Shown here: positions 10,566 through 61,054 of the stretch, piece by piece
How positions within the stretch are numbered: the stretch's first letter is position 1
How the letters are laid out: each line of letters starts with the position of its first letter
Source: an uncultured Planctomycetales bacterium
GTDB taxonomy: Bacteria > Omnitrophota > Gorgyraeia > Gygaellales > Profunditerraquicolaceae
NCBI GenBank assembly: GCA_964593005.1
Contig: CAZQGT010000002.1
Coordinates: 13,324 to 77,323 of the forward strand
Direction: 5' to 3'
Length of the DNA stretch: 64,000 nucleotides
Made by a program: the position numbers and the translations under genes
The notes under the pieces: model-generated
Told to the model about the DNA's origin: nothing
Database searches by the model: none
What the model saw: the letters and a program-made list of their open reading frames with translations, nothing else

Positions 10566-11687
10566 TTGTTTAGAAGAAGGTCACATCGTATGAAGAAACT
10601 TAAAGTAATTTTTGCCTGCATTCTGTTATTGTTGTCAGCCGAGCTCCTGGCGCGGGTTTTGGCCCCGGAATACAGGTCTCTGGACCACCGCGTGGGAATC
10701 ACCGGAGGCGTTCCGTTTTTATTAAATTCTTTTGGACTGCGGGATGACGAATTCAATATTGATAAGGGGGATGAGTATCGAATATTATGTATTGGTGACT
10801 CTGTTACTTTTGGAACACAAAATCGTTTGCAAGACATATATCCTAAAGTCCTCGAAAGAATTTTGAATGAAGGTAGTAAAATTCACTATAGGGTTATCAA
10901 CGCAGGGGGATTGGGGGGTTATCCGCAGCTAGAGCTTGAGTATATTAAAGCAAAAGGAATTGAGTTTAAGCCTGACCAGGTGATTTTAGGCTTGTGTCTT
11001 AATGACATAGGAAATAGTTATGCATCTATAGATAGTGAACAATCACTTGTAAAAATCCCTAATTTCTGGAAAAATGTAAATGATTTCCGGGCATACCGTG
11101 ATCCTTTTTTATGGAATAACAAGCTGTCATTTGCCGCAAATATTGTGGCAAATATTAAAATGCCGTTGAGTAAGTTTCGCTGGTATCTCAGAGGGAGAAG
11201 CTATCTGTTTGGGTTTATTGATGTTAATATGACCGGGTTTTTATATCGGTCTGGATTAAAAAAATATTCTTTTGATATGTACCGGGAAAAGGAATGCATC
11301 CTGAGTTTTGGTATTGATAAAACCTCAGCCTTGGGATGGAAGAAGCTTGAGTCATCTCTTGTCGGAATGAGCCAATTTCTAAAAGAAAGAAATATCGGTT
11401 TTATTGTAGTGGTATTTCCCTATGAATTTCAGCTTAGTGATAATGCACGAGATAATTTTTTCCAAATCGATAAGAACAGGTTTACTATAAATCCGCAGCA
11501 AAGGGTTGTTGCCTTTGGGAAAGAGAATAATATTGCAGTTATCGATATTTTACCTGAGTTTCAGAAAAGCGGAAAAAAACTTTACTATCCGCTGGACTAC
11601 TGTCATCCGAATGCATACGGCCATGAGATCGCTGCGCGCAGTATTTATAATTTTTTAAAGCGGAAAAAGATCCTGGCGTTGCAATGA
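10566..11687 (+). CDS. SGNH/GDSL-family hydrolase (esterase / O-acyl-modifying enzyme), membrane-anchored
   Basis: N-terminal TM or signal sequence. Block I is CIGDSVTFG, block II NAGGLGG, block III GLCLNDIGN and block V DYCHPNAYGH. Confidence 0.6.
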   Translation: MFRRRSHRMKKLKVIFACILLLLSAELLARVLAPEYRSLDHRVGITGGVPFLLNSFGLRDDEFNIDKGDEYRILCIGDSVTFGTQNRLQDIYPKVLERILNEGSKIHYRVINAGGLGGYPQLELEYIKAKGIEFKPDQVILGLCLNDIGNSYASIDSEQSLVKIPNFWKNVNDFRAYRDPFLWNNKLSFAANIVANIKMPLSKFRWYLRGRSYLFGFIDVNMTGFLYRSGLKKYSFDMYREKECILSFGIDKTSALGWKKLESSLVGMSQFLKERNIGFIVVVFPYEFQLSDNARDNFFQIDKNRFTINPQQRVVAFGKENNIAVIDILPEFQKSGKKLYYPLDYCHPNAYGHEIAARSIYNFLKRKKILALQ

Positions 11688-11981
11688 GGCAAGGAAATAA
11701 GATGATCACGCAGGTCATTTAATGACATTAGCCAGCTTGTGCATTTATTCCGAGCTGTGGGCATTGCTTTAAAGCAAAAGTGCTTGTGGGGCGTCGGAAG
11801 GCAGAATATAATAAAGTTGCGCCATTTTGTCCGTTGAATTATTAGTTACTTGCTCAAGAAGTTATTAGGCAGGATTGGCCAGAAAACGAGGTAGTTTTCT
11901 AGCCTCAGCCTATGTGGTTCATGTTGTATCTGGCGTAAAAAAATAATGGTTTTATAAAATGGGCACATTCCTAACAACTCT

Positions 11982-13688
11982 ATGAAGATTCTTTTGTGTA
12001 ATATAGCTGTACGTAAAAAACCCGACCCTTTTCCTCCTGTTGCTTGCACGTGTTTAATGAACGCTCTAAAAAGAAGCGGATATCAATCTGTTTTTTATGA
12101 TATCGACGCAAGGAGGCCTTCGCCTGAAGAGCTTTTTGTTTATTTTAAGAGAGAGCAATTTGATCTTGTAGGGATTAGCGCTGTTGTATCGACAGGATAT
12201 AAGTATACTAAAAATTTAGCTGGCATAATCAAGAATGCCTGTCCAACTACTAAAATAATATTGGGAGGGAATTTGGCTGTTGCCTATAAGGTAGTTTTAC
12301 GTAAATGTCAGATAGATTTATGCGTCATTGGGGAAGGTGAGAGGGTTTTGTTAAACCTGGTTAAATATTTAGATAAATACGGAAGCTTTGAGCCTGCTAG
12401 AGAAGAGTTGTTTAAGATCAAGGGGGTAGTTTTTTTGGATTCCCGGGGAACTTGTAAATTTACTGGCAACGATGAGCTTATCTCTAGTGACGAGATAGAG
12501 GAGCCCGATTATAAAATATTAGACGAATTCTCCATTATTTCTCAGTATATACAAGATCCTTTGACGAGAGCTGATTTCGTTATCGATCCGCGTACCCACG
12601 AGGCAAAACGTCGAGGGAAAAAGATGGCAACTATTTTTACTTCTAAGGGGTGTGTGAATGCTTGCACTTTTTGTCATCGATGGGTAAAGGGTTATAGGGT
12701 AATTCCAATAGATAAAGTAATTTCTACAATGAAATACCTGATCGATAAATATAGCGTAGGATTCTTTTGTATCAGCGATGAATGTTTCGGTGAAGATAAA
12801 GAATGGCTTGAGCAGTTTATCGGCCAGCTAAAGCCGCTGGATATCCTTTTCCAGGTATCTGGGGCGCGGGTATCGATTATTAGAAAAGACCCTACGATTT
12901 TAAAAAGACTAAAAGAGGTTGGGTTGACAGCGCTATATTTTGGGATAGAGAGCGGAAGCGATAAGATGCTTAAGGTAATGGAGAAAAATGTGTCGAAAGT
13001 TGAAAATATAGAAGCAATGAAAATATGCTCTGAAGCAGGCATCTTTACGATCATCCAGCTTGTTATCGGACTACCGGGAGAAAACGATTTTACAATCAGC
13101 GAGACAATAGATTTTATTAAAAAAGCGACTGGAGAATTGCCTTCTCTTCCGTTGGTGGTTGTGAATTATCTTCAGGCTTTGCCGGGTACGCCATGCTATG
13201 AATTCTTGCGCTATAATGGTCTTCTCGGCAAGACTATTGAAGACGAAGAAGGGTATCTTTTAAGGGTATCCGATATAGACGCCGGCGAGTTCAGGCAGTA
13301 TCTTAATGTTTCTGAAGAATCGCTGCCTAAGGTTAAACTATGGAGGACCAAGATTTATTTCCTGCCGATGATCCATTGGCTTAAATCTCATGGATGGAGA
13401 TTTCCTAGCAGGCAAAACTATAAGCTTCGGGATAATCCGGGTAGCCGGGTTTCCATAAAAGCGCTTTTTAAAGAATATCTTAAAACTAATATTTGGTTAT
13501 ATCGAATAATCGATATTTGCGGTGAATGGTTCTGGGGAGTAATATTGACGTTGGATATATTTTCTATATATGGCATTAGGAAGGCCCTATTAATTTTACT
13601 GGGGATTAAAAAGGATGAGGGGAGGGTGCAATTTAAGATTAAAGGTAAAACCCTCAGAGAAATTGTAAAAATGAATGAATACTCGTAA
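11982..13688 (+). CDS. B12-binding-domain radical SAM protein (class B)
   Basis: N-terminal region of about 200 aa (MKILLCN...) consistent with a cobalamin-binding Rossmann domain. The radical SAM triad follows (ATIFTSKGCVNACTFCHRW). Confidence 0.7.
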   Translation: MKILLCNIAVRKKPDPFPPVACTCLMNALKRSGYQSVFYDIDARRPSPEELFVYFKREQFDLVGISAVVSTGYKYTKNLAGIIKNACPTTKIILGGNLAVAYKVVLRKCQIDLCVIGEGERVLLNLVKYLDKYGSFEPAREELFKIKGVVFLDSRGTCKFTGNDELISSDEIEEPDYKILDEFSIISQYIQDPLTRADFVIDPRTHEAKRRGKKMATIFTSKGCVNACTFCHRWVKGYRVIPIDKVISTMKYLIDKYSVGFFCISDECFGEDKEWLEQFIGQLKPLDILFQVSGARVSIIRKDPTILKRLKEVGLTALYFGIESGSDKMLKVMEKNVSKVENIEAMKICSEAGIFTIIQLVIGLPGENDFTISETIDFIKKATGELPSLPLVVVNYLQALPGTPCYEFLRYNGLLGKTIEDEEGYLLRVSDIDAGEFRQYLNVSEESLPKVKLWRTKIYFLPMIHWLKSHGWRFPSRQNYKLRDNPGSRVSIKALFKEYLKTNIWLYRIIDICGEWFWGVILTLDIFSIYGIRKALLILLGIKKDEGRVQFKIKGKTLREIVKMNEYS

Positions 13689-13704
13689 ATGGGGGGTATA
13701 ATAA

Positions 13705-14583
13705 ATGATTCATAAGAAAGTTAAGATTGGGACTAGGCAGGTTGGGGATAATTATCCATGTTGCATCATAGCTGAGATTGGCATAAATCACAACGGCTCT
13801 ATAGACATTGCAAAGAGATTAATTAATGTTGCCGTTGAATCAGGGTGTGATGCCGTTAAGTTCCAAAAGAGGACTGTGAGTAAGGTTTATACAAAAGAAG
13901 AACTGGCCAAACCAAGAGAGAGCCCTTTTGGGACTACTAACGGTGATTTAAAAAGAGGGCTCGAATTTGGTGCTAAGCAATATAGAGAGATTGATCTTTA
14001 CTGTAAAGAAAAAGGAATCTTGTGGTTTGCATCATGTTGGGACGAAGAATCAGTCGATTTTATGAAACAATTCGACCCGCCATGTTATAAGATAGCGTCT
14101 GCTTGTATAACTGACGATAAACTTTTACGTTACCATAAGAAAGAAGGTAAACCTATAATTCTCTCAACGGGCATGAGTGATATTTCGATAATCGAACACG
14201 CAGTTGATATTTTAGGGGAAGATAATCTTATAATTATGCATTGTACCAGTACCTACCCTTCAAAGCCTGAGGAGTTGAATCTTATGGGTATAGAAACATT
14301 AAAAAATAAATTCGCTGTTCCCATAGGTTATTCGGGACATGAGGTTGGTCTTTACACTACATTTGCGGCTGCTGTTTTAGGTGCATGTAGTATTGAAAGG
14401 CACATCACTCTTGATAGGGCTATGTGGGGGAGTGATCAGGCGGCATCAGTGGAACCTATTGGAATAAAGAGGCTTGTAGTTGATATAAGAAATTGGGAAT
14501 TAGCCAAGGGTGATGGTAAGATTTGTATATACGAAAGCGAAATGCCAATTATGAAAAAATTGAGAAGAGTGGGGTCAGTATGA
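13705..14583 (+). CDS. N-acetylneuraminate synthase (NeuB) family, sialic/ulosonic acid synthase-like, short form without the C-terminal SAF domain
   Basis: CCIIAEIGINHNGSIDIAKRLI is the canonical NeuB/PseI/LegI N-terminus. The protein is 292 aa against about 340 aa for NeuB, so the antifreeze-like domain is missing. Confidence 0.7.
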   Translation: MIHKKVKIGTRQVGDNYPCCIIAEIGINHNGSIDIAKRLINVAVESGCDAVKFQKRTVSKVYTKEELAKPRESPFGTTNGDLKRGLEFGAKQYREIDLYCKEKGILWFASCWDEESVDFMKQFDPPCYKIASACITDDKLLRYHKKEGKPIILSTGMSDISIIEHAVDILGEDNLIIMHCTSTYPSKPEELNLMGIETLKNKFAVPIGYSGHEVGLYTTFAAAVLGACSIERHITLDRAMWGSDQAASVEPIGIKRLVVDIRNWELAKGDGKICIYESEMPIMKKLRRVGSV

Positions 14584-15380
14584 GTCTTTATGGCTTAGGT
14601 TGTATAAATGTAGAGCTTACTAGCAGATGTAATAAGGCATGTTGGATATGCGGAAGGCGTAAAGTGGATAGGGATTATCCGGGGTTTGCCACCGAATACG
14701 CAGATATGGATTTTGATCTGGTGGTTAAGATAGCCTCTCAACTCCCGCCGAATATCGTTGTTCAATTTCACCGGGACGGCGAGGCGTTACTCTATCCACG
14801 ATTCGGCGAGGCGGTTAGCCTCTTTAAGAAACAGATAAAGAATATCGTAACAAACGGCAAGCTGATCGTTGAGAAAGCCGGAGAGATTATAGGTAATCTT
14901 GATACTTTATCAATCTCTGTTTTTGAAGGCGATGATGAAGCCGATGAACAATTTAAATTAATAAAAGAATTCCTTAGAATTAAAGGGGACAGTAAGCCGT
15001 ATACGAGCATTAGACTCATAGGCAATGTCGACCAAGTACGGTATAAAGATTTGAATGCGCTTATTATAAAAAGGGTACTTCACTCCCAGATGGGCAGCTA
15101 TAATTACCATAAAAAAGATCCGACGATTCCCGAGATTGGGATCTGCTGGGATTTCCTTCATCATTTAAGTGTTAACCGGCAAGGAAAAGTTTCTATTTGC
15201 GTTCGCTTTGATCCTCGGTGGTTAGGTGTCATAGGAGATGCTAATAAGCAGTTGCTCGGAGATATATGGAATAGTCAAAGGCGTATGGAATGGTTGGAAT
15301 ATCATAAAGCTGGTAGAAGAGATAAGATTCCCCTATGTTCTTATTGCCATTTCTGGGGAGTACCTACATCCCCTGCCTAA
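14580..15380 (+). CDS. Radical SAM protein with C-terminal Cys pair (possible twitch/SPASM-like)
   Basis: Start moved to the ATG at 14580 (MSLYGLG...), which overlaps the NeuB stop as ATGA. CxxxCxxC is present (TSRCNKACWICGRRK). C-terminal LCSYCHFWG. Confidence 0.55.
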   Translation: MSLYGLGCINVELTSRCNKACWICGRRKVDRDYPGFATEYADMDFDLVVKIASQLPPNIVVQFHRDGEALLYPRFGEAVSLFKKQIKNIVTNGKLIVEKAGEIIGNLDTLSISVFEGDDEADEQFKLIKEFLRIKGDSKPYTSIRLIGNVDQVRYKDLNALIIKRVLHSQMGSYNYHKKDPTIPEIGICWDFLHHLSVNRQGKVSICVRFDPRWLGVIGDANKQLLGDIWNSQRRMEWLEYHKAGRRDKIPLCSYCHFWGVPTSPA

Positions 15381-15402
15381 AACATACAGGAAAGGAATTT
15401 GT

Positions 15403-16152
15403 ATGGCGAATAGCGTGGTAGCATTAATTCCGGCGCGAGGCGGTTCAAAAGGTGTGGTTGGTAAAAATATCAGATATCTGGCCGGCCACCCTTTGATTGC
15501 GTATTCGATAGGAGTTGCCCGGATGTCCGGAAGTATTGGCCGGATTATTGTTTCTACTGATTCTTTAGAAATTGCAGATATGGCTCGCGCATATGGGGCT
15601 GAAGTGCCTTTTATGAGGCCAAGTGAGATATCTCAGGATAGATCAACTGATTTTGAATTGTTTCAGCATGCTGTTCAATGGTTTGAGCGGGGTAGTTCGA
15701 TACCTGAATTGATGATACACCTGCGGCCGACCACTCCGTTTAGGGATGCCGAAGAGATCGATCGGGCTGTTAGCTTAATACGATCTCACCCAGAGGCGAC
15801 ATCTCTACGATCGATCCATGAACTTTCTGAGCCTCCGCATAAGATGTTTCAATTGGATCCCCAAGGTTACCTGAAAGGTTTTTTTCCTGACGATCCAAGG
15901 CCAGAATATTATAATTTGCCCAGGCAGATATTCCCTAAGGCGTATCATCCGAATGGCTATGTTGATATCATCAAGTTGGCATATCTCCAGCGGTATGCTG
16001 CCCTGCATGGGCCACGTATACTCGGTTTTATTACTCCGGTATCGAATGAAATCGACCGTATTGAAGATTTTGAGTATTTAGAGTATTGCGTTAGCCGGAT
16101 CAATAGCCCGGTTCTTGAATATTTAAATAAGAATTTTCCCGGAAAGGATTAA
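15403..16152 (+). CDS. Acylneuraminate (CMP-ulosonic acid) cytidylyltransferase family, NeuA/KdsB-like
   Basis: Start moved to the ATG at 15403, with AGGAAAGGAA upstream. MANSVVALIPARGGSKGVVGKNIRYLAGHPLIAYSI is the classic CMP-NeuAc synthetase N-terminus. Confidence 0.7.
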   Translation: MANSVVALIPARGGSKGVVGKNIRYLAGHPLIAYSIGVARMSGSIGRIIVSTDSLEIADMARAYGAEVPFMRPSEISQDRSTDFELFQHAVQWFERGSSIPELMIHLRPTTPFRDAEEIDRAVSLIRSHPEATSLRSIHELSEPPHKMFQLDPQGYLKGFFPDDPRPEYYNLPRQIFPKAYHPNGYVDIIKLAYLQRYAALHGPRILGFITPVSNEIDRIEDFEYLEYCVSRINSPVLEYLNKNFPGKD

Positions 16153-16155
16153 TAT

Positions 16156-17553
16156 ATGGCTGGCAGCGATTTTAAGAAAACGCCGCAGGTAGTTAGGCCA
16201 ATCAAGACAAAATATAGAAAGATCAAAACGATGATTCCGGCACCCGGATATTCGCTGATTTTTAAGAATTTGGAAAAATATGAATCGCGCTCTATGCACG
16301 GGCAGTTACCTATTGTTTGGGATAAGGCGATAGGTTTTTCCGTTTTTGACAAGTATGGCAATCAATGGATTGATTTTACCTCGACGATATTTGTTGCAAA
16401 TGCGGGCCATGCAAATCCTGGCGTTATTCGGAGTATTCGTAATCAGCTCAATCATAAATTGTTACATACGTATGTGTTTGCCAGTGAAATACGAGCAAAA
16501 TTTCTAAAAAAACTTATAGAGATTACGCCGAAACAGTTTCAAAAAGCTTTTTTGCTTTCTTCTGGAACCGAGGCTACTGAATGTGCGTTTAAACTGATGC
16601 GGATGCATGGGCAGACTATTAGGCCGTCAAAGATCGCAATTATTTCTTTCCGAGGCGCCATGCACGGCAGGACTATGGCTGCGGAGATGTTAAAAGGCAA
16701 CCCTAAGACTTCATCATGGATTGGTTATGTTGATCCGAATATTTATCATTTGCCTGTTCCCTATCCTTGGCCCAGGCGTTCAACGGTCAAGAAGGAATAT
16801 GATTGGGGTAGGCATTTTGAACAGGATATGAATGGGCTGAAAAAAAATGGCCTTGATTTTAAGAATATTGCAGGTTTTATTATTGAATCGTATTTAGGGT
16901 GGGGTGCGATATTTTATCCCAAGCCGTATATACAAATGCTGGCTGATTTTGCCAAGCGTTACGATAGCCTGGTAGTTTTTGACGATATTCAAGGCGGATT
17001 TGGTAGAACCGGAAAGTTGTTTGCGTATCAGCATTATGGAGTTGAACCCGATTTATTATGCTTAGGTAAGGCAATGAGCGGTTCATTGCCGCTCTCAGCG
17101 GTGATCGGCAGGCGCTCGATTATGGATTTACCTGATGTCGGTTCAATGAGTAGCACCCATTCGGCAAATCCGCTTTCTTGTGCTGCAGGCCTTGCTACAC
17201 TTGAGGCAATCGAAGCGAATGATTTGGTGAAAAAGTCTTTTAGTAAAGGGAAGATCCTGCATTCGTATCTCAACGGTTTGAAATCTAGGTATCCGGAAAG
17301 GATTGAGCATGTATTTGGCAAAGGATTGCTCGCTGGGGTCATATTCAAGGATCCCGCAAGCGGTAAACCTGATAGTGTGTTTCCAATGAAAGTGTGTGAA
17401 AGGGCAATGCAAAGAGGATTACTTTTAGTGTATACTGGTAGAGAGTCTATTAAAATCGGCCCCCCACTGGTGATTTCAGATGATGCGCTTTTAGAAGGAT
17501 TAGGTGTGTTCGAAGAGTCTATTAAAGAAATAATCGCAGAGGAGACGGTATGA
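16156..17553 (+). CDS. Class III (aspartate aminotransferase family) PLP-dependent aminotransferase
   Basis: LLSSGTEATECAFKLMR and FDDIQGGFGRTGKLFA are characteristic class III motifs. The lysine in CLGKAMSG is the likely PLP lysine. Confidence 0.7.
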   Translation: MAGSDFKKTPQVVRPIKTKYRKIKTMIPAPGYSLIFKNLEKYESRSMHGQLPIVWDKAIGFSVFDKYGNQWIDFTSTIFVANAGHANPGVIRSIRNQLNHKLLHTYVFASEIRAKFLKKLIEITPKQFQKAFLLSSGTEATECAFKLMRMHGQTIRPSKIAIISFRGAMHGRTMAAEMLKGNPKTSSWIGYVDPNIYHLPVPYPWPRRSTVKKEYDWGRHFEQDMNGLKKNGLDFKNIAGFIIESYLGWGAIFYPKPYIQMLADFAKRYDSLVVFDDIQGGFGRTGKLFAYQHYGVEPDLLCLGKAMSGSLPLSAVIGRRSIMDLPDVGSMSSTHSANPLSCAAGLATLEAIEANDLVKKSFSKGKILHSYLNGLKSRYPERIEHVFGKGLLAGVIFKDPASGKPDSVFPMKVCERAMQRGLLLVYTGRESIKIGPPLVISDDALLEGLGVFEESIKEIIAEETV

Positions 17554-17987
17554 TAGTGGCACGACATATCGGGATAGTTGTTTATGATTTGGAAAAAATG
17601 GTGCATTTTTACAAGGATTTGCTTGGGTTAAAAGTTGTAAAACGCATGGATGAGTCTGGTAGTTATATTGATACTCTCCTTGCATCTCCGGGGACACATA
17701 TTAAAACGGTTAAGTTATCGTCTGGCGGTGCTGTGTTTGTTGAGTTATTATATTTTCATTCGCATCCCGGACAGATTCGTCTTCAAAAAGGTTTATTTGA
17801 TAACGGTATATCCCATATCGCGTTTACGGTTAAGGATATCGATTCGGAATGTAAAAAATTGACTAAGGCAGGAGTTTTGTTTGTTTCTCTCCCGCAAAAT
17901 TCGCCTGATGGCCAAGCGAAAGTTGCTTTTTGCAGGGATTATGAGGGCAATCTTCTGGAATTAGTCGAGGAATTACACCCCGCGTAA
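17550..17987 (+). CDS. VOC (glyoxalase/bleomycin-resistance/dioxygenase) family protein
   Basis: HIGIVVYDLEKMVHFYKDLLGLKV N-terminus and ISHIAFTVKDID second half match the paired beta-alpha-beta-beta-beta VOC modules. Confidence 0.55.
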   Translation: MIVARHIGIVVYDLEKMVHFYKDLLGLKVVKRMDESGSYIDTLLASPGTHIKTVKLSSGGAVFVELLYFHSHPGQIRLQKGLFDNGISHIAFTVKDIDSECKKLTKAGVLFVSLPQNSPDGQAKVAFCRDYEGNLLELVEELHPA

Positions 17988-18006
17988 GTGGAGTGATAGA
18001 GGAGAT

Positions 18007-19326
18007 ATGAAAATAGGCAATCGGAATAAAAAAGTATTATTAAGCATAGGCATAAGCATTATTTCCATTTTTCTTATCGAAATTTTTTCGATCGGCATTC
18101 TTTTTGTAAATGAAATATTGCATAAAAGGCCGATTGACGATTTCTTTCTGGCTAAATTCGCGATAACCCGGCCGATAAGTTATTTATGCCATCCTTCAAA
18201 GAACATGTCCTATTTTAAGAAAGCTAAACAAAAGAATATCGGTGATTTATCGGCAGTCAGTGAAGATAAATGGAGATATCTTTTTCCGCCTGATACGATT
18301 TTAGGGTGGAGGCTGGCAAAAAATGTTAAATGTACCCATTATAGTAAATATATATATATTACGAATGATCAGGGTTTTATGTCTACAGGGGAATCCGATT
18401 TTTATTATGATCCCGTGAAAGCGAAAGATGTTTATCGAATAATTGTTGTTGGAGGCTCGACAGTCTTTGGCCAGGGCGCCTATACGCCTGCTGAGAATTT
18501 ACCCGCGACAATATATAATTATCTGCAGAAAATTCATCTAAGGAATGATAAAAAAGTAACATATGAAGTCATTAACGCCGGAATCTCAGGCTATCTTTCT
18601 AACCAAGAATTTTTGTATATATTAACTGAACTATTAAGTTTTCATCCGGATCTTATTATCGTATATGATGGCTGGAACGACGCAAATTATAACAATTTGT
18701 TATTGGGTAAAACACAAGAAGGTATAAATTCGTTAAAATTGTTAACTCATTACGAATTAGAAAAACGACTGAGTAAAAGTTATACTATTTCGGGCAGCTT
18801 TTCTACTTTCTGTGGTGTTCTTAAGAGCTACGGGAACATTTATTTAAATCAATCTGGAGCTGTAACATTGTTGCGGATGGCTATACGCAAATACAAAAAT
18901 GTGGGTTATGTGCAGAAGCTTTCTAAATATGATTATCAACAAATGAACGTTGAGACCTATAAGGAAAATCTCACTAGAATGATTATGTTGTCTAAGTTTT
19001 ATCACTTCCGGATAGGCATATTTTTACAACCGATTATGGGCGTTGGTAATAAGGTATTGACTCAGGAGGAAAGAGGGATCCTTCAGGATATAGCTGATTT
19101 GCGGTGTCGAGTTCTATTTTATGAAGCGGCTAGAGATGCCTTCCAAGATTTAAAGCAGGAATATGGCAATGATCGGGAAGTGACCATAAAAGATCTATCC
19201 GGATCTTTTGATAATATCGACTATACTGTTTACGCCGATTCCGGTCATTTATTGCTCATCGGTAACCAGATTATAGCTAAGAATATTATCGGGGCGCTTA
19301 AATTATCTGATGCCGTCAATAAATAG
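18007..19326 (+). CDS. SGNH/GDSL-family hydrolase, membrane-anchored
   Basis: N-terminal TM helix. Block I is IIVVGGSTVFG, block II NAGISGY, block III YDGWNDANY and block V ADSGHLL. Confidence 0.55.
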   Translation: MKIGNRNKKVLLSIGISIISIFLIEIFSIGILFVNEILHKRPIDDFFLAKFAITRPISYLCHPSKNMSYFKKAKQKNIGDLSAVSEDKWRYLFPPDTILGWRLAKNVKCTHYSKYIYITNDQGFMSTGESDFYYDPVKAKDVYRIIVVGGSTVFGQGAYTPAENLPATIYNYLQKIHLRNDKKVTYEVINAGISGYLSNQEFLYILTELLSFHPDLIIVYDGWNDANYNNLLLGKTQEGINSLKLLTHYELEKRLSKSYTISGSFSTFCGVLKSYGNIYLNQSGAVTLLRMAIRKYKNVGYVQKLSKYDYQQMNVETYKENLTRMIMLSKFYHFRIGIFLQPIMGVGNKVLTQEERGILQDIADLRCRVLFYEAARDAFQDLKQEYGNDREVTIKDLSGSFDNIDYTVYADSGHLLLIGNQIIAKNIIGALKLSDAVNK

Positions 19327-19408
19327 GCGCGAAAAAGATGCGATTACTGGAAGGGCATATAAATTTGATCTCTAATTGTTGCGGAAAGAAGATTAAGCGC
19401 TGGGTCCG

Positions 19409-19426
19409 ATGAAAATTTATTTTCAT
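19409..19426. promoter_or_regulatory. Perfect 18-bp palindrome (ATGAAAATttATTTTCAT), candidate operator
   Basis: Read directly from the sequence. It lies 26 bp upstream of the ATG at 19452, inside a 125-bp intergenic gap. GGAGG ribosome-binding site at 19436-19440. Confidence 0.3.
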
Positions 19427-19451
19427 AAATTATTTTTGGAGGAATTATATC

Positions 19452-20489
19452 ATGTCTCTTAAAAAACAATTATCTATCGGCGTCATTGGGATTGGTCACT
19501 GGGGCCCAAATATAGTGCGCAATTTTGCAAATCATCAAAGGGTGCAGCTTCGTTATGTCTGCGATATTGATGAAAGAAAACTCAAACGAGTTTCGAATTT
19601 AATTACTAAGGAATGCCGTTGTGTTACTGATGCCTCAGAGATATTCAACGATGCAAATGTGGATGCAGTTGCGATTGTTTCTCCGGCGTCAACTCATTAC
19701 GCCTTGGTAAAGAAGGCTATGCTTGCGAAGAAACATGTTTATTGTGAAAAACCATTAACTTTAAATGTTAAGGAAACCGAAGAACTGTGCAAATTAGCCG
19801 AAACCTCAAAGCGGAAACTCATGGTAGCTTTTACTTTCCTTTTTAATAATGGAGTGAGGCAGCTCAAGAAGTTGAAAGATTCCGGCGTTTTAGGTAAGTT
19901 ATATTATCTTACATCGATACGTACACATATGGGGCTTGTTCGAGATGATGTGGATGTTGTCTGGGATTTGGCCCCTCATGACGTATCTATTATAAACTAT
20001 TTGCTTGGCTCTATGCCCAAAAAGGTCTTGGCTACAGGAGCAAAACCTTTGGGAGGAAAGCATTATGATGTTGCTTTTATAAGCCTTTACTATCCTAATG
20101 GGGTAATGGGGCAGATCTGTGTAAGTTGGGTTGATTCAAATAAGGAGAGAGTGGTGCGTATTATTGGAAGTAAGGCGCGGGCAGAATTTAATGATTTAGA
20201 TAACTTAGAACCGGTGCGTATTTTTAAGAAAGGTATTTCTGTGGTAGATCGCAGCGAAGCCGATTTTGGTAAATTTCGGTTTCTTTTACGCGACGGTGAT
20301 ATTATTAGCCCTAAAACAAATATGTCGGAACCGCTTAGCGAGATGGTTAATTCTTTCGTAGGGGCTGTTTTGGATGAAAAAGAGATTATTTCTGATGGTA
20401 AGTACGCTTTAGATGTTACAAAGACTATTGTAGCTATTCAAAAATCGTTATCATCTGGGGCTATACAGGAGGTAGTAAATGGGAGCTAA
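19452..20489 (+). CDS. Gfo/Idh/MocA-family NAD-binding oxidoreductase (WbpB-like sugar dehydrogenase candidate)
   Basis: N-terminal Rossmann [22 protein letters not shown] motif in YCEKPLT. Confidence 0.7.
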
Positions 20490-21006
20490 GATGAATGTGC
20501 GTGTAGGCAAGTACTGCACAATTTCTAAAGATGTAGAATTTGGCAAGAATGTTATTGTTCATGGGCATACTAATTTATATGGCTGTCAGATAGGGGATAA
20601 TTGTAGTATTGGGAAGTTCGTGGAAATTCAACGCGATGCAAGGATAGGGAATCGTGTGCGTGTACAATCTCATACTTTTATCTGCTCAGGCGTTATTATT
20701 GAGGATGATGTTTTTATCGGTCACAATGTAAGTTTTGTAAATGATCGTTATCCAACAGTTTCAAAAGCCGTTAGCGGAACGTGGAAACTTGAAGAGAGCA
20801 AGATAAAGCATGGCGTAAGCATTGGCAGCGGATGCGTTATACTTTGTGGCATAGAAATCGGGGAGGGGGCGGTAGTTGGTGCCGGTAGCGTTGTGACTAA
20901 AGATGTACCGCCTCATGTTATCGTGGCAGGGGTGCCTGCCAGGATTATGCGCTCATTAACTCCTGATGAATATTGGCGCGGAGGTTATCCGCAAGGTAAT
21001 GAGTGA
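20479..21006 (+). CDS. Hexapeptide-repeat (left-handed beta-helix) acyl/acetyltransferase, WbpD/PglD-like
   Basis: Imperfect [LIV]GxxxxI hexapeptide repeats run throughout ([51 protein letters not shown]). Confidence 0.65.
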
Positions 21007-21057
21007 GACGAGCCCTCGCAGCATTAACTGTTTATCTTATAGATCTAGTAAAATTTT

Positions 21058-21777
21058 ATGAGCAAAAAGAGCATTTCAATTATAATACCGGCTTGTAACG
21101 AAGAGCAAGGTATTGAAAGCGCTGTACTGCATAATATCGAAACATTTAAAGCGCTGGACTTTGACTTTGAGGTAATTATTGTTAATGATAAAAGCGAAGA
21201 CAGAACCGGTGAAATCGCGGAATCATTAGCCAGCCGATATCCCAATATTAAGGTTTTTCATCATGATAGTAATCAAGGTAGCGGCGCTGCTTTTAAGACA
21301 GGTGTTGCTTGGGCTAGGAAAGATTATGTAGTATTTGTTCCTATTGATAATCCGCTGGACATAGAAGATTTACAGGCTTACCTTTTTCGGCTCGATGTCT
21401 GCGATATTGTGGTTGGTGTTCGTATACAGAGAGTAGGATATAGCAGTTTTGCTCTTTTTGCCTCTTTCGTCTATAACCGGATATTTATACCATTGTTTTT
21501 TAATATTGGCCTTGAAGACGCTAATTGGATAAGTTTTTACCGCCGTGATCTTTTTACCAGCGGTATTATCAGCTTTAACAGTAAAAGTATTTTTTGGCTA
21601 GTTGAAATACTGATTCGGGCCAGAAGGAGGCGCTTAATTATTGTTGAGGTACCCAGCAAGATGAAGAAACGCATGCATGGTAGAGCTACCTGCACCCGCC
21701 CTCAAGTTATGATTCAAACATTTATCGAAATGATTAAGTTTTTCCGGATGATACGAAAGGAAGATAGAAGGCGATGA
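21058..21777 (+). CDS. GT2 glycosyltransferase, DPM1/GtrB-like polyprenyl-phosphate sugar synthase type
   Basis: ISIIIPACNEEQGIE and VIIVNDKSEDRT in the GT-A N-terminus. The C-terminal ...VEVPSKMKKRMHG matches the DPM1-like E.P...R..G.SK region. Confidence 0.6.
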   Translation: MSKKSISIIIPACNEEQGIESAVLHNIETFKALDFDFEVIIVNDKSEDRTGEIAESLASRYPNIKVFHHDSNQGSGAAFKTGVAWARKDYVVFVPIDNPLDIEDLQAYLFRLDVCDIVVGVRIQRVGYSSFALFASFVYNRIFIPLFFNIGLEDANWISFYRRDLFTSGIISFNSKSIFWLVEILIRARRRRLIIVEVPSKMKKRMHGRATCTRPQVMIQTFIEMIKFFRMIRKEDRRR

Positions 21778-23450
21778 GATGTGTATTTGTGGCTATCGGG
21801 TGGGAAAATATTGCTCTTCAAGCGTTATCGGCCATGTTAAAAAAACACGGCCATGAGGTGCACTTAGTCTATGATCAGGCCCTTTTTGATGATAAGAACT
21901 ATCTTTGTATTAAATGGCTGGCTAGGTTGTTTGATCAAAGGAGTTTGATCATTCAACGAATTATGGAACTAGAGCCCGATTTAGTAGGTTTTCATGTGCA
22001 AACCATACAATATCAGCAAATGCATAACTTGGCCGCTGATTTAAAAAAGTATTATAATGTTCCGGTAATTTTTGGAGGTATACATCCTTACTCTGCGCCG
22101 GATCAGGTTTTGCTGTCTGATGATCCGTCGGTGGATATGATCTGCCTTGGGGAAGGGGAATATCCGCTTTTGGAATTATGTAACAGTATAGATAAGGGCA
22201 AAATAGATTACGCCATTAAGAACCTTTGGTTTCGGCTTGAAGATAGCTCGATTATTAAGAATGAACTGCGCCCGCTTATAGATGATATTGACAGCTTGCC
22301 TACTATAGATAAGGAATTATTCGCCTCTCATGTTCCCATAAAATATTCTTATCTTTCTTGTCCGGCCCGGGGTTGCCTGTTTGATTGTAATTATTGTTCG
22401 CTTTCATTTTTGGGTAAAGAAGCCAAGCGGCTTAAGGGGCCAAAGGTAAGGCAGCTGTCGGTTGATACATTGATAAATGAACTTAAGCAACATATATTGA
22501 AATATGGATCGGCTTGGATAGATTTTCGTCAACCGTTAATGTCAACAAACGAGAAATGGACCGTCGAATTTTTTACCCGGTACAAAAAGGAGATTAGGCT
22601 GCCGTTTAGATGCTTTAGTCACCCTCTGCTTATTACTGAACCGTCTGTTCGGGTAATGAAAGAGGCTGGATGTTTTGCCATTCAGATAGGTATTGAGTGC
22701 TGGGATGAAGAAATTCGTCATAAGGTTATAAACCGTTGCGAATTGAATGAAGATATCCGGAAAGCCACGGAGATACTTGAACGCGTTGGACAATATTACG
22801 CTTATGACTACATACTCGGCTTACCGCGGCTTCCCAAGACCTTAGCCGATGGCTCTACTGCTGCGTTATCGCAAGAAGAAACCCTGGAATCTATTGAGAA
22901 GGAGCTTATGGGTTTTGCGCAATTTCTTGCGCCGCTTAAGTACTGTTATCGTATTGCCCCGTTTATGATTCAATATATGCCTAAAACCGAGCTAATTCAG
23001 CATGGTATAAACGCCGGCGATTTGAGTTGTCGGGAGATCCAGCGGCTCCAGGAAGGGCTTCATGATAATTATATGTCCGGTGGTTCTATGGTTATGAATC
23101 CAAAACGTTTGCGTCTTTTAAATGGTTATCGGGCGATGTTTAGATTAATGAGTTTTTTATCACCCCGGGCAAAACAGTTATTGATAAAGTTTAAAGTATA
23201 TAAAATATTCTGGATGGCGCCGTTTCGCTTGTTTATGACTGTTCTGGATATTATGATTGCGGTTCGCGACAAGGATGCAACCACATATGTTAAAAACTAC
23301 TACTGGTGGTTTAGGAAGCGGTTTGATAGTAAGTATCATCTATATATGTTCAAAAGGCCTAAAAAGCATCAAGTGCTTTCAGATGCCCCTTTTCAACTTC
23401 CCCGGGATGGCATTCTTGGGAGAAAAACCGCGCATGGATATGAGAGGTAA
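21774..23450 (+). CDS. B12-binding-domain radical SAM protein (class B)
   Basis: N-terminal MRCVFVAIGWENIALQALSAMLKKHGHEVHLV, cobalamin-domain-like. Radical SAM triad GCLFDCNYCSLSF. Confidence 0.65.
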   Translation: MRCVFVAIGWENIALQALSAMLKKHGHEVHLVYDQALFDDKNYLCIKWLARLFDQRSLIIQRIMELEPDLVGFHVQTIQYQQMHNLAADLKKYYNVPVIFGGIHPYSAPDQVLLSDDPSVDMICLGEGEYPLLELCNSIDKGKIDYAIKNLWFRLEDSSIIKNELRPLIDDIDSLPTIDKELFASHVPIKYSYLSCPARGCLFDCNYCSLSFLGKEAKRLKGPKVRQLSVDTLINELKQHILKYGSAWIDFRQPLMSTNEKWTVEFFTRYKKEIRLPFRCFSHPLLITEPSVRVMKEAGCFAIQIGIECWDEEIRHKVINRCELNEDIRKATEILERVGQYYAYDYILGLPRLPKTLADGSTAALSQEETLESIEKELMGFAQFLAPLKYCYRIAPFMIQYMPKTELIQHGINAGDLSCREIQRLQEGLHDNYMSGGSMVMNPKRLRLLNGYRAMFRLMSFLSPRAKQLLIKFKVYKIFWMAPFRLFMTVLDIMIAVRDKDATTYVKNYYWWFRKRFDSKYHLYMFKRPKKHQVLSDAPFQLPRDGILGRKTAHGYER

Positions 23451-23461
23451 GGGTATAGAAT

Positions 23462-24346
23462 TTGGATTGTTTAAAAAGAGAAGTGAAAGTGAATTTTTCC
23501 AGCCTCGATTCATCAAAATTAAAGTTTATTGAGTGTGTCTGTGATCTCTGCGGGAATAAAGAGAGTCAAGTTATTTATTCTGTCTATTTTCTTGGCCTAA
23601 AGTTCTGTTTTGTCCGCTGTTGCGTTTGTGGATTGGTCTATCAAAGCCCCGTTTTGGATAAAGAGAGCCTGAAAAATATATATGAAACGCTGGAATACTG
23701 GGAACATAAAGGCTCCGCCAATTCCACTATGCTTAATTATTATTCTTACTTTGAAGAGGAAGATATGCGCCGGCGTACTGCGGATATCCGAATCAATTGG
23801 ATGGCGCCATACTTGCCGAAAGGTGCCCGCGTATTGGATTTGGGTTGTTCGGATGGCCTTTTTGTTGATGTCCTTGCGAAATCCGGATATCGAGCCTCTG
23901 GCATAGACGTAAGCAGTGCGATGGTTTCTTATGGACGCAAAATTTATTCGGTTAATATTTTCCGGGCAGATTTTGAAGAGGATTGGCCGTTTACTGAACC
24001 CTTTGATGCTATTAGCTGCTATGCGACCCTGTCAAATATTGTTAATCCCTCGCGGGTTTTTGCCAATGTACATAAACATTTGCGGCCTGGCGGTTACTTT
24101 TTCTTCAATTTTGGTTCTTATGACCGGTTAATATCGAGATTTCTGAGAAGCCGTCTCTATCTTTACCGCCCTACCGTTTGTACTATCTATTCAAAAAAGA
24201 CCGTAACTGATTATTGCCATAATCATAACCTTAAAATCTTGAAGATATTTAATGATCTGCAGGTTGTTCCCCTTGCGCGTCTTTTAGGTTTTTTCGTATT
24301 CCGGGTTGTCTTAGTTTATTTAAGCGTCTTGGGCTTGAGAAAATGA
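23462..24346 (+). CDS. Class I SAM-dependent methyltransferase with N-terminal Cys-rich zinc-ribbon
   Basis: CVCDLCGN...CCVCG N-terminus. Motif I RVLDLGCSDGLFVDVLAKSGYRASGIDVS. LRPGGYFFF. Confidence 0.6.
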   Translation: MDCLKREVKVNFSSLDSSKLKFIECVCDLCGNKESQVIYSVYFLGLKFCFVRCCVCGLVYQSPVLDKESLKNIYETLEYWEHKGSANSTMLNYYSYFEEEDMRRRTADIRINWMAPYLPKGARVLDLGCSDGLFVDVLAKSGYRASGIDVSSAMVSYGRKIYSVNIFRADFEEDWPFTEPFDAISCYATLSNIVNPSRVFANVHKHLRPGGYFFFNFGSYDRLISRFLRSRLYLYRPTVCTIYSKKTVTDYCHNHNLKILKIFNDLQVVPLARLLGFFVFRVVLVYLSVLGLRK

Positions 24347-24527
24347 AGTTACGAATGACGCTATTAACGGGATATGCGGCGTATGCTATCCGCGGGGATT
24401 GAATCGCGCCGATATCGACAGGTAAAGTTATTTTGGTTTGATAATATGGGCGGGTATAGCCGGAACAGTCATTCGGTTGCTCTTTTGATTAAAAAAGAGA
24501 AAGATTCTTATTAGGCAGGTAGATTCC

Positions 24528-24555
24528 TTGAAAATTTTGAACTTAGTCTAAAAAT
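24528..24555 (+). promoter_or_regulatory. Candidate sigma70-like promoter in the 235-bp gap
   Basis: TTGAAA at 24528-33. An A/T-rich -10-like TAAAAAT at 24549-55. GGAGA ribosome-binding site before the ATG at 24582. The spacing is non-canonical, so this is weak. Confidence 0.15.
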
Positions 24556-24581
24556 AGCTTAACGGAGAAAATTAAGAAGAA

Positions 24582-26039
24582 ATGAAAATTATACTTATAA
24601 ATCCTCCACGCTTTAAGGATACTGAATGCATAGCGCCTTCATATATGTTTGATTATGGGTTTAATTATCCTCCTCTTGGTCTTTTATATTTGGCCTCTAA
24701 CCTAAAAGGAAATCATGAATGTAAGATTATCGATGCCCTTGCGTTAAAATATTCTCCATATGATTGTTTGAATGAAATAAAAGAATATAAGCCTTTGATC
24801 GTTGGTATGACTGTATTTACGGATTCACTTTATTCATGCCAATTCCTCTCTAGATTAATCAAAGATTATGATCGCAACATTAAGATTATTTGGGGCGGCC
24901 CTCATGTCAACATATACCCCCGAGAAAGTATTGAGCTGCCTGCTATAGATTACGTTTTAACAGGTTTTTCTGAAAACAGCTTTTCCTATCTTGTTAATGC
25001 TCTGGATAACGAACATTCTGATATGCCTAGGGTGTTTGAAAATATTCCAGGGTTGTGGTGGGCTAATAATAAGAACATATTTATCTCTAAATCTAATATT
25101 GATAAAGATTGGAATATAAATGCGTTAAAAAGGCCTAATCGCAAATTACTTGATTTAGATAAGTACTTTACTGCTGCAAATAATAAGAAAATTACAACAA
25201 TCGTTTCATCAAGGGGGTGTCCTTTCGTTTGTACTTTTTGCGACGTTTTCGAGAAACGTTTTCTCGAAAGAGATGCTTCTGATATTATTGATGAACTCAA
25301 AGATATTATTGATCTTGGTATTAGCGAGGTTAATTTCTTTGATGATTGCTTTAATTTGAAAAGAGAAAGGGTGATGCAATTATGTCAGCTGATTATCGAT
25401 AATAAACTGAAATTTGAATGGAGTTTTAGAGGCAGAATAGAGCCTTGCGATGAAGAACTAACCAGATTGCTATATAATTCTGGTTGCCGGCGGGTTCAAC
25501 TCGGCGTTGAAGGAAGCGACCAGGAAACCATAAATAGAATCAATAAGAAAATAAATATTGAAAAGTTGCCTAAGATATTAAAAACTTACAGACAAAGCGG
25601 TATTAAGACAATGGGGTATTTTATTATCGGTTTTCCTTTTCAGAGATATGAAGATTGCGTTGTTTCATGTAAAAAAATTATTAATATGGGGTTTGATTAT
25701 ATCAATATGTTCATCTTGATTCCTTACCCTAATACTTCTATTTACAAAGAGCTGCTTACTCAAGGTATTATCAAAAGAGATCAGTGGCATGAATATGCTG
25801 TTAATCCGCGGCCTTATTTTAAGTTAGAACGATGGCATCCATATATAGAGAGGGAGGTGCTTGAGGTTTTAATGGATAAATATTATGGAAAGTTTTATTT
25901 ATCGCCAAGGCGTATATTTTCAGAGTTTAAAGGTATTCGATCATTGAATAGCTTAATACATAAATCGAAGATGGCCATGGGTATTATCAAAGGCTGCCTT
26001 CATAACAAAACCAGAAATTCAACTTCTGTTGGTTCCTAA
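24582..26039 (+). CDS. B12-binding-domain radical SAM protein (class B)
   Basis: MKIILINPPRF... is the typical class B N-terminus. Radical SAM triad SSRGCPFVCTFCDV. About 33-35% GC. Confidence 0.7.
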   Translation: MKIILINPPRFKDTECIAPSYMFDYGFNYPPLGLLYLASNLKGNHECKIIDALALKYSPYDCLNEIKEYKPLIVGMTVFTDSLYSCQFLSRLIKDYDRNIKIIWGGPHVNIYPRESIELPAIDYVLTGFSENSFSYLVNALDNEHSDMPRVFENIPGLWWANNKNIFISKSNIDKDWNINALKRPNRKLLDLDKYFTAANNKKITTIVSSRGCPFVCTFCDVFEKRFLERDASDIIDELKDIIDLGISEVNFFDDCFNLKRERVMQLCQLIIDNKLKFEWSFRGRIEPCDEELTRLLYNSGCRRVQLGVEGSDQETINRINKKINIEKLPKILKTYRQSGIKTMGYFIIGFPFQRYEDCVVSCKKIINMGFDYINMFILIPYPNTSIYKELLTQGIIKRDQWHEYAVNPRPYFKLERWHPYIEREVLEVLMDKYYGKFYLSPRRIFSEFKGIRSLNSLIHKSKMAMGIIKGCLHNKTRNSTSVGS

Positions 26040-61050: not shown

Positions 61051-61054
61051 AGAA

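Follow-up and report, generated by a model that had tools for sequence, protein, structure and literature searches.

A conserved short NeuB, radical SAM and cytidylyltransferase gene unit, probably for a CMP-activated sugar acid, in a glycan locus of an uncultured bacterium

A 64-kb stretch of DNA from an uncultured bacterium placed in the Omnitrophota (contig CAZQGT010000002.1, positions 13,324 to 77,323), here called the window, contains a tightly packed operon inside a glycan locus. In this operon a short NeuB-family gene is followed by genes for a radical S-adenosylmethionine (SAM) enzyme, a cytidylyltransferase, a class III aminotransferase and a VOC-fold protein. The five genes, spanning 13705-17987, are predicted from their sequences and are probably an operon for a cytidine monophosphate (CMP)-activated amino sugar acid related to sialic acid. 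More tentatively, and with somewhat less than even confidence, the product is predicted to be a CMP-activated aminated 3-deoxy-2-ulosonic acid, made by a phosphorylated route in which the radical SAM enzyme supplies a ketone. The module would thus add a radical SAM step to the chemistry of sialic-acid-like sugars, and it is spread over many phyla rather than confined to one genome. To our knowledge, the known routes to such sugars, namely N-acetylneuraminic acid (Neu5Ac), 3-deoxy-D-glycero-D-galacto-nonulosonic acid (Kdn), legionaminic acid (Leg), pseudaminic acid (Pse) and 3-deoxy-D-manno-octulosonic acid (Kdo), employ polar two-electron chemistry only. The core genes are:

13705..14583, plus strand: short NeuB-family phosphoenolpyruvate (PEP) aldolase (NeuBs) without a SAF domain (PF03102, 263 bits)
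14580..15380, plus strand: BtrN-like twitch radical SAM enzyme, 266 aa (Pfam Radical_SAM and SPASM; CX3CX2C and four invariant Cys)
15403..16152, plus strand: NeuA/PseF-like cytidylyltransferase, predicted CMP-ulosonic acid synthetase (PF02348, CTP_transf_3, E 3e-20)
16156..17553, plus strand: class III (omega-type) pyridoxal phosphate (PLP) aminotransferase (PF00202, Aminotran_3, E 1e-88)
17550..17987, plus strand: VOC-fold metalloenzyme, proposed keto-sugar epimerase (PF00903, Glyoxalase/VOC, E 5e-19)

All genes of the window lie on the plus strand, at about 38% GC. The eight open reading frames (ORFs) named in the original prediction were all found on that strand with the domains assigned to them, the SGNH hydrolase domain being weak, and the ATGA coupling that it had noted between the NeuB and radical SAM genes was confirmed (radical SAM ATG at 14580, NeuB TGA at 14581-14583). 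The VOC gene is likewise ATGA-coupled to the aminotransferase gene. Successive intergenic distances from 11982 to 19326 are 16, -4, 22, 3, -4 and 19 nt, and this tight spacing supports a single operon that starts at 11982 and extends at least to 19326; the next gene (19452) follows after a gap of 125 nt. A promoter and terminator scan of 11500-24700 returned signals no better than those in shuffled sequences. Glycan functions encoded in the window include glycosyltransferases, a Wzx-like flippase, two Wzy-like proteins and an initiating sugar transferase, together with nucleotide-sugar enzymes, many methyltransferases and eight radical SAM proteins.

The radical SAM family is large, with more than 1,375 relatives in a protein collection clustered at 90%, the best 120 of which are 65-85% identical to the window protein. 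A scan of one genome per GTDB species, anchored on this gene, gave 119 loci, of which 80 were kept; identities in the family are 58-85% over these species representatives, which number at least 119. The short NeuB was present within 6 kb of the radical SAM gene in 68/80 loci, the cytidylyltransferase in 66/80, the VOC protein in 33/80 and the class III aminotransferase in 27/80. When only loci with at least 7 kb on both flanks were counted, the short NeuB was found within 9 kb of the radical SAM gene in 42/43 and the cytidylyltransferase in 40/43, so that the trio proposed in the original prediction is conserved as a unit in many phyla and in archaea. Identical copies of the window proteins occur in metagenome assemblies, on contigs of up to 78.7 kb, and the closest named relatives are from Candidatus Omnitrophota. 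Other bacterial carriers belong to the Planctomycetota (including Scalindua), Lentisphaerota, Elusimicrobiota, Nitrospirota, Nitrospinota, Acidobacteriota, Actinomycetota, Clostridia, Dehalococcoidales, Cloacimonadota, Bacteroidota, Leptospirales, CPR groups and Desulfobacterota, the last with one isolate, Desulfovibrio sp. 1188_IL3213 (locus L044); the archaeal carriers are Methanoperedens, Methanobacteriota and Woesearchaeota. Most carriers are uncultured lineages generally regarded as anaerobic.

The original prediction named no precedent for a radical SAM partner of NeuB, and the literature search likewise found none: no paper was encountered that connects NeuB-type, nonulosonic or ulosonic acid biosynthesis with a radical SAM enzyme, most subscription journals lying outside the search. 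The idea of a variant CMP-ulosonic-acid module held for its core, in that the NeuB scores below the equivalog cutoffs, falls in a separate clade and is conserved with its two partners. It did not hold for the SGNH, Gfo/Idh/MocA and acetyltransferase genes, which are not members.

The radical SAM enzyme and its carbonyl-using partners

The CX3CX2C motif of the radical SAM protein (C17, C21 and C24) is invariant in 43 sequences, and the homologues begin at the same Met. Exactly four more cysteines are invariant (C189, C207, C253 and C256) and are predicted to be the ligands of a single auxiliary cluster in a twitch domain. The best PDB match of the family profile was BtrN (E 4.6e-11). In this alignment the N-terminal cores correspond, and the C-terminal CxxC pair C253/C256 falls on BtrN C232/C235; judging by their spacing, C189 and C207 presumably match the two remaining BtrN ligands. 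An AlphaFold model (pLDDT 81.8) was also compared with the PDB by Foldseek. BtrN (4M7T) was again the best match (E 7.3e-11, TM 0.59/0.64), followed at 1e-7 or weaker by other twitch/SPASM enzymes, including SpeY, EpeE, BlsE and DesII, of which SpeY (a twitch radical SAM dehydrogenase), BlsE and DesII act on sugars, sugar nucleosides or cyclitols. No NCBIfam model specific for the family was found, the best match being 41 bits to a tungsten-cofactor maturase model.

BtrN converts an alcohol into a ketone, and its auxiliary cluster has four Cys ligands (PMC10337720). The radical SAM enzyme of the module is proposed, by analogy with this closest solved relative in both sequence and fold, to form a ketone on the ulosonate. 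The two proteins are similar in size (266 aa against 269-270 residues in the BtrN PDB chains) and share the CX3CX2C motif and the four-Cys auxiliary cluster pattern. In the butirosin route the step catalyzed by BtrN, the 2-deoxy-scyllo-inosamine dehydrogenase, is followed by an aminotransferase, as is proposed for the module. However, BtrN acts on an aminocyclitol rather than on the acidic sugar or sugar phosphate proposed here, its partner aminotransferase is of the DegT type rather than class III or class IV, and it is purely oxidising, whereas the module enzyme may also eliminate.

The partners of the trio were examined by clustering neighbour ORFs and annotating representatives, which revealed alternative forms of the module. 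Single-linkage clustering merged the cytidylyltransferase with short-chain dehydrogenases (SDRs) and, in GC-rich loci, with GmhA and phosphatases; the merged clusters were separated with Pfam, NCBIfam and home-made hidden Markov models (HMMs). The first form (27 loci) combines NeuB, cytidylyltransferase, class III aminotransferase, VOC protein, methyltransferase and radical SAM enzyme. A second form (20 loci) has NeuB, cytidylyltransferase, a class IV aminotransferase and the radical SAM enzyme, and a third replaces the aminotransferase by an SDR most similar to gluconate 5-dehydrogenase and to KduD, the substrate of which is 2-keto-3-deoxygluconate. The fourth, in Desulfovibrionaceae and some archaea, has an acetolactate-synthase-like thiamine pyrophosphate (TPP) enzyme.

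The alternatives in this slot, class III aminotransferase with VOC protein, class IV aminotransferase, SDR and TPP enzyme, are all carbonyl-using enzymes. The C2 keto group is the sole pre-existing carbonyl of an ulosonate and must stay for CMP activation, and therefore a new carbonyl is needed. No other oxidase conserved in the module was found by the neighbour clustering of related loci, which leaves the BtrN-like enzyme as the only conserved candidate to make it.

The TPP enzyme was located at L044:6650-8467 and L047:3422-5521, and also in L096, L102, L105 and L120; it is encoded inside the module in Desulfovibrionaceae and in 16/80 metagenomic loci free of the radical SAM gene (described below). 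By analogy with yersiniose biosynthesis, in which keto sugars are branched by a TPP-dependent enzyme, its presence may point to an ulosonic acid with a branched or extended chain.

The class III aminotransferase, which has conserved K305 and D276 that we take to be the residues with PLP roles, is always found with the VOC protein, and it occurs together with a class IV aminotransferase in one locus only (L082). A metal-binding tetrad in the VOC protein (H6/E65/H89/E137) is conserved in 35 sequences. In septacidin biosynthesis the VOC-fold, Mn-dependent sugar epimerase SepA inverts a carbon adjoining a keto group, just ahead of an aminotransferase step (PMC9978623). This precedent provides a rationale for the fixed aminotransferase-VOC pair, and the VOC protein is proposed to be a keto-sugar epimerase analogous to SepA. 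The class III aminotransferase is in turn proposed, from its family, to aminate the ketone.

The cytidylyltransferase (CTP_transf_3 domain, 73 bits) scored 137 bits with the PseF model, under the cutoff of 205.7, and at most 41 bits with KdsB models; its best PDB matches were NeuA 9FTB (E 2e-31) and 6IFD. By these scores it appears NeuA/PseF-like and not KdsB-like, a member of the family but no equivalog of any named enzyme. Its subtype follows the partner, with 51% identity to the window copy in class III loci and 32% in class IV loci. In contrast, the identity of NeuB to the window copy is independent of the variant (medians of 56, 53 and 55% in three groups), and that of the radical SAM enzyme is 64% in all three. 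The split is seen even among the closest Omnitrophota relatives, in which the cytidylyltransferase is 61-64% identical in L005, L007 and L010 but 32-35% in L008, L009 and L011, despite equal NeuB and radical SAM identities. Since only the cytidylyltransferase subtype co-varies with the partner, NeuB and the radical SAM enzyme would seem to catalyze shared steps, with tailoring preceding CMP activation.

The short NeuB and the KdsC-type phosphatase

The absence of the SAF domain stated in the original prediction was borne out. PF03102 (E 2.4e-78) covers residues 39-272 of 292, and the protein stops right after the barrel. Members of the radical SAM-linked clade end 0-14 residues past the C-terminus of the window NeuB, whereas canonical paralogues at the same loci are about 50 residues longer. 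The window protein scored 248 bits with the N-acetylneuraminate synthase model TIGR03569 (cutoff 399.65) and 201 bits with the pseudaminic acid synthase model TIGR03586 (cutoff 340.25). In a neighbour-joining tree without support values, the radical SAM-linked NeuBs formed one SAF-less clade apart from N. meningitidis NeuB (NmNeuB), PseI, SpsE and 6NCS, so that the gene at 13705 is placed with neither NeuB nor PseI. Four canonical NeuB paralogues at radical SAM loci (33-41% identity) also fell outside this clade. The 290-aa NeuB of PDB entry 6NCS was considered as a structural representative and rejected, being 35% identical and outside the clade.

NmNeuB residues E25, K53, Q55, K129, S132, S154, Y186, S213, H215, E234, H236 and D247, to which we assign catalytic roles, are all matched in the window NeuB. 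Two positions differ: E134 is replaced by C (M in most of the clade) and N184 by S. Basic residues K55, R56, R71, K285 and R287 are kept across the clade and have no counterpart in aligned NmNeuB, PseI and SpsE. In the archaeal NeuB ORFs L015:2184-3251 and L036:4265-5344 the N-terminus is extended in frame by about 70 residues (MPKKGYESITIP...), the sequence of which is similar in these two distant archaea; the extension represents a small domain fused to NeuB or, alternatively, a separate upstream gene in frame with it.

The possibility that the short NeuB always accompanies the radical SAM enzyme was rejected. When JGI metagenomes were scanned with the NeuB as anchor, 80 loci with NeuBs 55-71% identical to the window copy were obtained, and the radical SAM gene was present in 1/80. 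These NeuBs interleave with the radical SAM-linked ones inside the SAF-less clade. A KdsC-type HAD-IIIA phosphatase was found beside NeuB or fused to the cytidylyltransferase in 52/80 of the NeuB-anchored loci, while the same HMM, built from the phosphatases of these sister loci, detected it in 1/80 of the radical SAM-anchored loci and in none of the six-frame ORFs of the window. Comparison with the PDB confirmed the identity of the phosphatase (KdsC and the 3E81/3E8M/4HGO group, which we take to be the Bacteroides Kdn-9-P phosphatase). Where NeuB was flanked by at least 2.5 kb on either side, 55 loci had the radical SAM gene only, 20 the phosphatase only, one both and three neither. In one sister locus (L090), the order NeuB, phosphatase, cytidylyltransferase, class III aminotransferase and VOC is that of the window with the phosphatase in the radical SAM position. 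Furthermore, the radical SAM-linked and phosphatase-linked NeuBs share 80 identically conserved positions, and no position is conserved but different between them.

One metagenomic subclade (Mb) has a cytidylyltransferase of about 425 aa (L127:6676-7947, L143:6668-7957 and some 20 further loci) that is also matched by the KdsC-phosphatase HMM. This protein, encoded beside the short NeuB, is apparently a fusion of cytidylyltransferase and phosphatase.

In the phosphorylated Kdn route, known from Bacteroides thetaiotaomicron, Prymnesium parvum and humans, mannose 6-phosphate (Man-6-P) and PEP are condensed to Kdn-9-P by a Kdn-9-P synthase (BT1714 type), a Kdn-9-P phosphatase (KdsC/HAD-IIIA type) removes the phosphate and a CMP-Kdn synthetase completes the pathway (PMC6200933). 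The sister phosphatases, the shared conservation of the NeuBs and this known route together argue that the clade condenses PEP with a sugar phosphate, and the SAF-less NeuBs are accordingly predicted to be probably users of phosphorylated sugars. A GmhA gene, the product of which scores above its equivalog cutoff, lies within the operon at 10 or more phylogenetically scattered loci, including several archaeal, actinobacterial and CPR ones, and D-glycero-D-manno-heptose 7-phosphate is therefore a candidate NeuB substrate there. GmhA occurs in 18/80 loci altogether, sometimes beside heptose nucleotide-sugar genes (HldE-like, GHMP kinase, NTP transferase). At this frequency, and with no copy in the window, it was rejected as a general member of the module and kept as a substrate lead.

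Proposed pathway and its alternatives

From the domains, their conservation, the patterns of co-occurrence and exclusion and the structural likeness to BtrN, a route can be proposed, of which the substrate, the oxidised position, the order of steps and the phosphate elimination are conjectural. The SAF-less NeuB would join PEP to an aldose phosphate, giving an ulosonate with a terminal phosphate; the candidate aldoses are one resembling Man-6-P and, where GmhA is in the operon, the heptose 7-phosphate. The radical SAM enzyme would then take a hydrogen from the carbinol carbon adjoining the phosphate-bearing carbon. In the favoured outcome the ketyl radical would expel phosphate to leave a terminal-deoxy methyl ketone; in a plainer one, a BtrN-type two-electron oxidation would give the ketone and an unlinked phosphatase would remove the phosphate. 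The VOC metalloenzyme could then epimerise the carbon adjoining the ketone, which the class III aminotransferase would in turn convert into an amine, after which the cytidylyltransferase, of a subtype matched to the tailoring, would form the CMP-sugar for the Wzx/Wzy-type glycan assembly of the window.

The favoured outcome would make the radical SAM enzyme a radical phospho-lyase that converts an ulosonate phosphate into a terminal-deoxy methyl ketone and replaces both KdsC and the early 4,6-dehydratase logic known from the Leg and Pse pathways. This proposal is speculative, and we consider it rather unlikely when taken on its own. Phosphate elimination would nevertheless explain why the radical SAM enzyme stands in place of the KdsC phosphatase, and it would account for the phosphatase exclusion, the carbonyl-using partners and the use of class III and class IV aminotransferases, families which include (S)- and (R)-selective amine transaminases accepting methyl ketones. 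If true, one anaerobic step would feed class III/IV amine transaminases, reductases or TPP carboligases and would open a family of undescribed CMP-sugars, including, with GmhA, ten-carbon (deculosonic) acids from heptose 7-phosphate. Such sugars would be displayed on the surfaces of Omnitrophota, CPR bacteria, DPANN and methane-cycling archaea, sulfate reducers and anammox bacteria.

Several observations weigh against the proposed route. We know of no direct precedent for phosphate elimination by a radical SAM enzyme. The identity to BtrN is about 18%, and the fold-related twitch/SPASM enzymes include other chemistry, EpeE being an epimerase and BlsE a decarboxylase. The sister locus L090 has the phosphatase with the class III aminotransferase and VOC protein and no radical SAM gene within its contig, so that either the ketone arises there without this enzyme or the gene lies beyond the contig end, and L036 carries both the radical SAM gene and a KdsC-like gene. 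Moreover, sugar phosphatases are functionally redundant, and for this reason a missing linked phosphatase is no proof that none acts (PMC6200933). The two sets of loci had different anchors (the radical SAM gene in GTDB genomes, NeuB in JGI metagenomes) and unequal GC (0.40 against 0.58); given the different sampling and GC, the exclusion could partly reflect taxonomy or oxygen lifestyle, and the samples in its Fisher test are not independent. GmhA is absent from the window. Finally, the neighbour genes come from six-frame ORFs, and the trees were built by neighbour joining without support values.

A less probable, though quite possible, version of the same pathway has the radical SAM enzyme as a plain BtrN-type dehydrogenase that oxidises one secondary (or terminal) hydroxyl of the ulosonate to a carbonyl, the phosphate being removed by an unlinked generic phosphatase or the radical SAM-linked NeuBs using a non-phosphorylated sugar. 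In its favour, no solved structure is closer in sequence or fold than that of BtrN, which also has the Cys4 auxiliary-cluster pattern; a second twitch dehydrogenase (SpeY) is among the fold matches, and carbonyl-using partners adjoin the radical SAM gene. Sugar phosphatases are, in addition, often redundant and unlinked (PMC6200933), and the presence of both genes in L036 fits this version. However, it leaves unexplained why a KdsC-type phosphatase is found at 20/23 radical SAM-free loci but at 1/56 radical SAM loci, and why the phosphatase of L090 occupies the radical SAM position. A switch to a non-phosphorylated substrate is unlikely because radical SAM- and phosphatase-linked NeuBs show no conserved differences.

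It is improbable that the enzyme carries out a different radical reaction on the sugar (for instance a dehydration, a deamination, a decarboxylation or the epimerisation of an unactivated carbon), with the aminotransferase, SDR and TPP partners using a carbonyl of different origin. The low identity to BtrN and the presence of EpeE (an epimerase), DesII and BlsE among the fold neighbours would allow it. By profile and by fold alike, however, BtrN was clearly the best match (E about 1e-10, with the rest at 1e-6 or weaker), four carbonyl-using partners require a new carbonyl since C2 must be kept, and the module has no further conserved oxidase. An ordinary legionaminic, pseudaminic or neuraminic acid (or Kdo) pathway beside an unrelated radical SAM neighbour, for example a maturase, is very improbable: the window does contain a PglF-like dehydratase (42190), a DegT aminotransferase (35709) and an acetyltransferase, and the cytidylyltransferase is most similar to PseF and NeuA, but the NeuB falls under the NeuB and PseI cutoffs in a clade apart even from same-locus canonical paralogues, no NeuC/LegG/PseG-type gene was found in the window, the KdsB scores speak against Kdo, and the radical SAM-NeuB-cytidylyltransferase linkage extends across distant phyla and archaea with translational coupling.

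The proposed route resembles those of Kdn and of Kdo, the latter an analogous pathway of KdsD, KdsA, KdsC and KdsB, in that a NeuB-family aldolase is followed by a CTP_transf_3 cytidylyltransferase. Sister loci of the clade have the KdsC-type phosphatase, free-standing or fused to the cytidylyltransferase, and at some loci the SIS isomerase GmhA would supply the aldose phosphate as KdsD does for Kdo. The phosphatase-bearing sister form looks like an ordinary Kdn/Kdo-type route, and the radical SAM form like the unusual one. Unlike the Kdn and Kdo pathways, the window and 55/56 radical SAM loci have no linked phosphatase and have the radical SAM gene there instead, and the module would include amination or other carbonyl chemistry after the radical SAM step.

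In septacidin biosynthesis, SepI, SepJ, SepA and SepG oxidise, epimerise and transaminate, and SepA is reported to have 23 homologues only, mostly in actinomycetes (PMC9978623). The module shares with it a VOC protein with an H/E/H/E metal tetrad paired with an aminotransferase, here a proposed one for a keto sugar, and, at some loci, a link to heptose. It differs in the substrate, which in septacidin biosynthesis is a heptosyl-adenine nucleoside, and in the oxidant, since no radical SAM enzyme has that role there. As in the Leg and Pse pathways, the product would be a CMP-activated amino-deoxy ulosonic acid for surface glycans, made with a PseF/NeuA-like cytidylyltransferase, and with the phospho-lyase mechanism it would also be terminal-deoxy. 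The Leg and Pse pathways employ PglF/PseB, a DegT-type aminotransferase, an acetyltransferase, a hydrolysing epimerase, LegI/PseI and LegF/PseF. Their amino and deoxy groups are set on a nucleotide-hexose before condensation, whereas tailoring in the module would come after the shared NeuB and radical SAM steps, and the unit has no SAF domain, hydrolysing epimerase or DegT enzyme.

The comparative patterns (the link to NeuB, the alternating partners, the co-varying cytidylyltransferase and the exclusion of KdsC) lead to a specific, testable hypothesis, and the Desulfovibrio isolate is a cultured carrier in which experiments are feasible. Sialic-acid-like sugars shape the recognition of microbial surfaces. 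If the hypothesis is true, the module would give new sugars, possibly a new type of radical SAM reaction and a marker for surface glycans in lineages whose cell envelopes are almost undescribed.

Other genes of the window

The genes on either side of the core are:

11982..13688, plus strand: B12-binding radical SAM enzyme, probably a methyltransferase (Pfam B12-binding and Radical_SAM), 16 nt upstream of NeuB; associated, outside the core
18007..19326, plus strand: SGNH-like protein, 439 aa, locus-specific (sub-cutoff Lipase_GDSL_2 match)
19452..20489, plus strand: Gfo/Idh/MocA oxidoreductase, similar to UDP-GlcNAc 3-dehydrogenase (Pfam GFO_IDH_MocA, E 3e-26)
20479..21006, plus strand: hexapeptide acetyltransferase of the NeuD/PglB/VioB family (Pfam Hexapep, E 2e-23)

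Orthologues of the B12-binding enzyme (60-63% identity) adjoin the module in the closest relatives (L004, L005 and L009), and genes of this kind are near the module in 32/80 related loci. The radical SAM set of the window comprises 30-1175, 11982-13688, 14580-15380, 21774-23450, 24582-26039, 26042-27610, 50027-51094 and 56199-57596. Five of the eight are B12-binding and are probable methyltransferases, a second radical SAM-SPASM protein is present, and about 10 class I methyltransferases are found alongside; this number of enzymes in 64 kb suggests a heavily methylated glycan.

The SGNH-like, Gfo/Idh/MocA and acetyltransferase genes had been proposed as partners of the module. They were near it in 0-1, 4 and 4 of 80 loci, respectively, and were rejected as members on grounds of conservation. 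The assignment of an SGNH hydrolase at 18007 was sustained in part, by a weak Lipase_GDSL_2 match of 25.3 bits (Pfam cutoff 32.9) over 83/439 residues. With no NCBIfam match and an N-terminus that resembles a membrane segment by eye, the product is best called an SGNH-like protein. The Gfo/Idh/MocA protein scored 138 bits with NF040723 and the acetyltransferase 82 bits with TIGR03570, both below cutoff. Where they recur, the two genes accompany a DegT aminotransferase and a likely UDP-sugar dehydrogenase, and they probably represent a separate WbpB/E/D-like nucleotide-sugar route; the acetyltransferase would act either together with the Gfo/Idh/MocA enzyme or, as an N-acetyltransferase, on the new amine.

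None of the window ORFs of 130 aa or more contained an Epimerase_2 or PseG-like domain, so that no gene of the NeuC/LegG/PseG type was found among them. The DegT gene at 35709 is 18 kb away from the module, and the PglF-like dehydratase is farther along the window. DegT genes are near the module in 20/80 loci; a fixed position inside the core was not seen.

A Wzx-like flippase gene (29903-31429) is followed by one for a 590-aa protein without a Pfam domain (31407-33179), which could be a transferase or polymerase for the new sugar. Clusters of these proteins recur beside the module, c32 in 4 loci and c19 in 7 loci, with identities of up to 60% and 41%. Cluster c17 (8 loci; L005:16525-17766), a protein of about 400 aa without a Pfam domain, follows module methyltransferases in Omnitrophota loci. 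Its sole match, a weak one of 27 bits to the Leptospira LIC12162-family transferase model, makes it a candidate glycosyltransferase; no counterpart was found in the window.

The ORFs for a GT2 glycosyltransferase (60373-61050) and a Wzy-like protein (60812-62275) overlap by 239 nt, and the Wzy-like gene probably starts at a codon later than the one listed. A DUF362 protein (48027-49067) is encoded two genes upstream of the second radical SAM-SPASM protein (50027-51094), with a GT2 gene between them, and a radical SAM-SPASM2 family similar to the latter recurs in 8 related loci. Additionally, an HpcH/HpaI-type aldolase and a further CTP_transf_3 cytidylyltransferase are found near the module in three loci (L083:17566-18396 and 19337-20194, L014 and L016), and this pair may represent another, unrelated route to a CMP-activated keto acid sugar.

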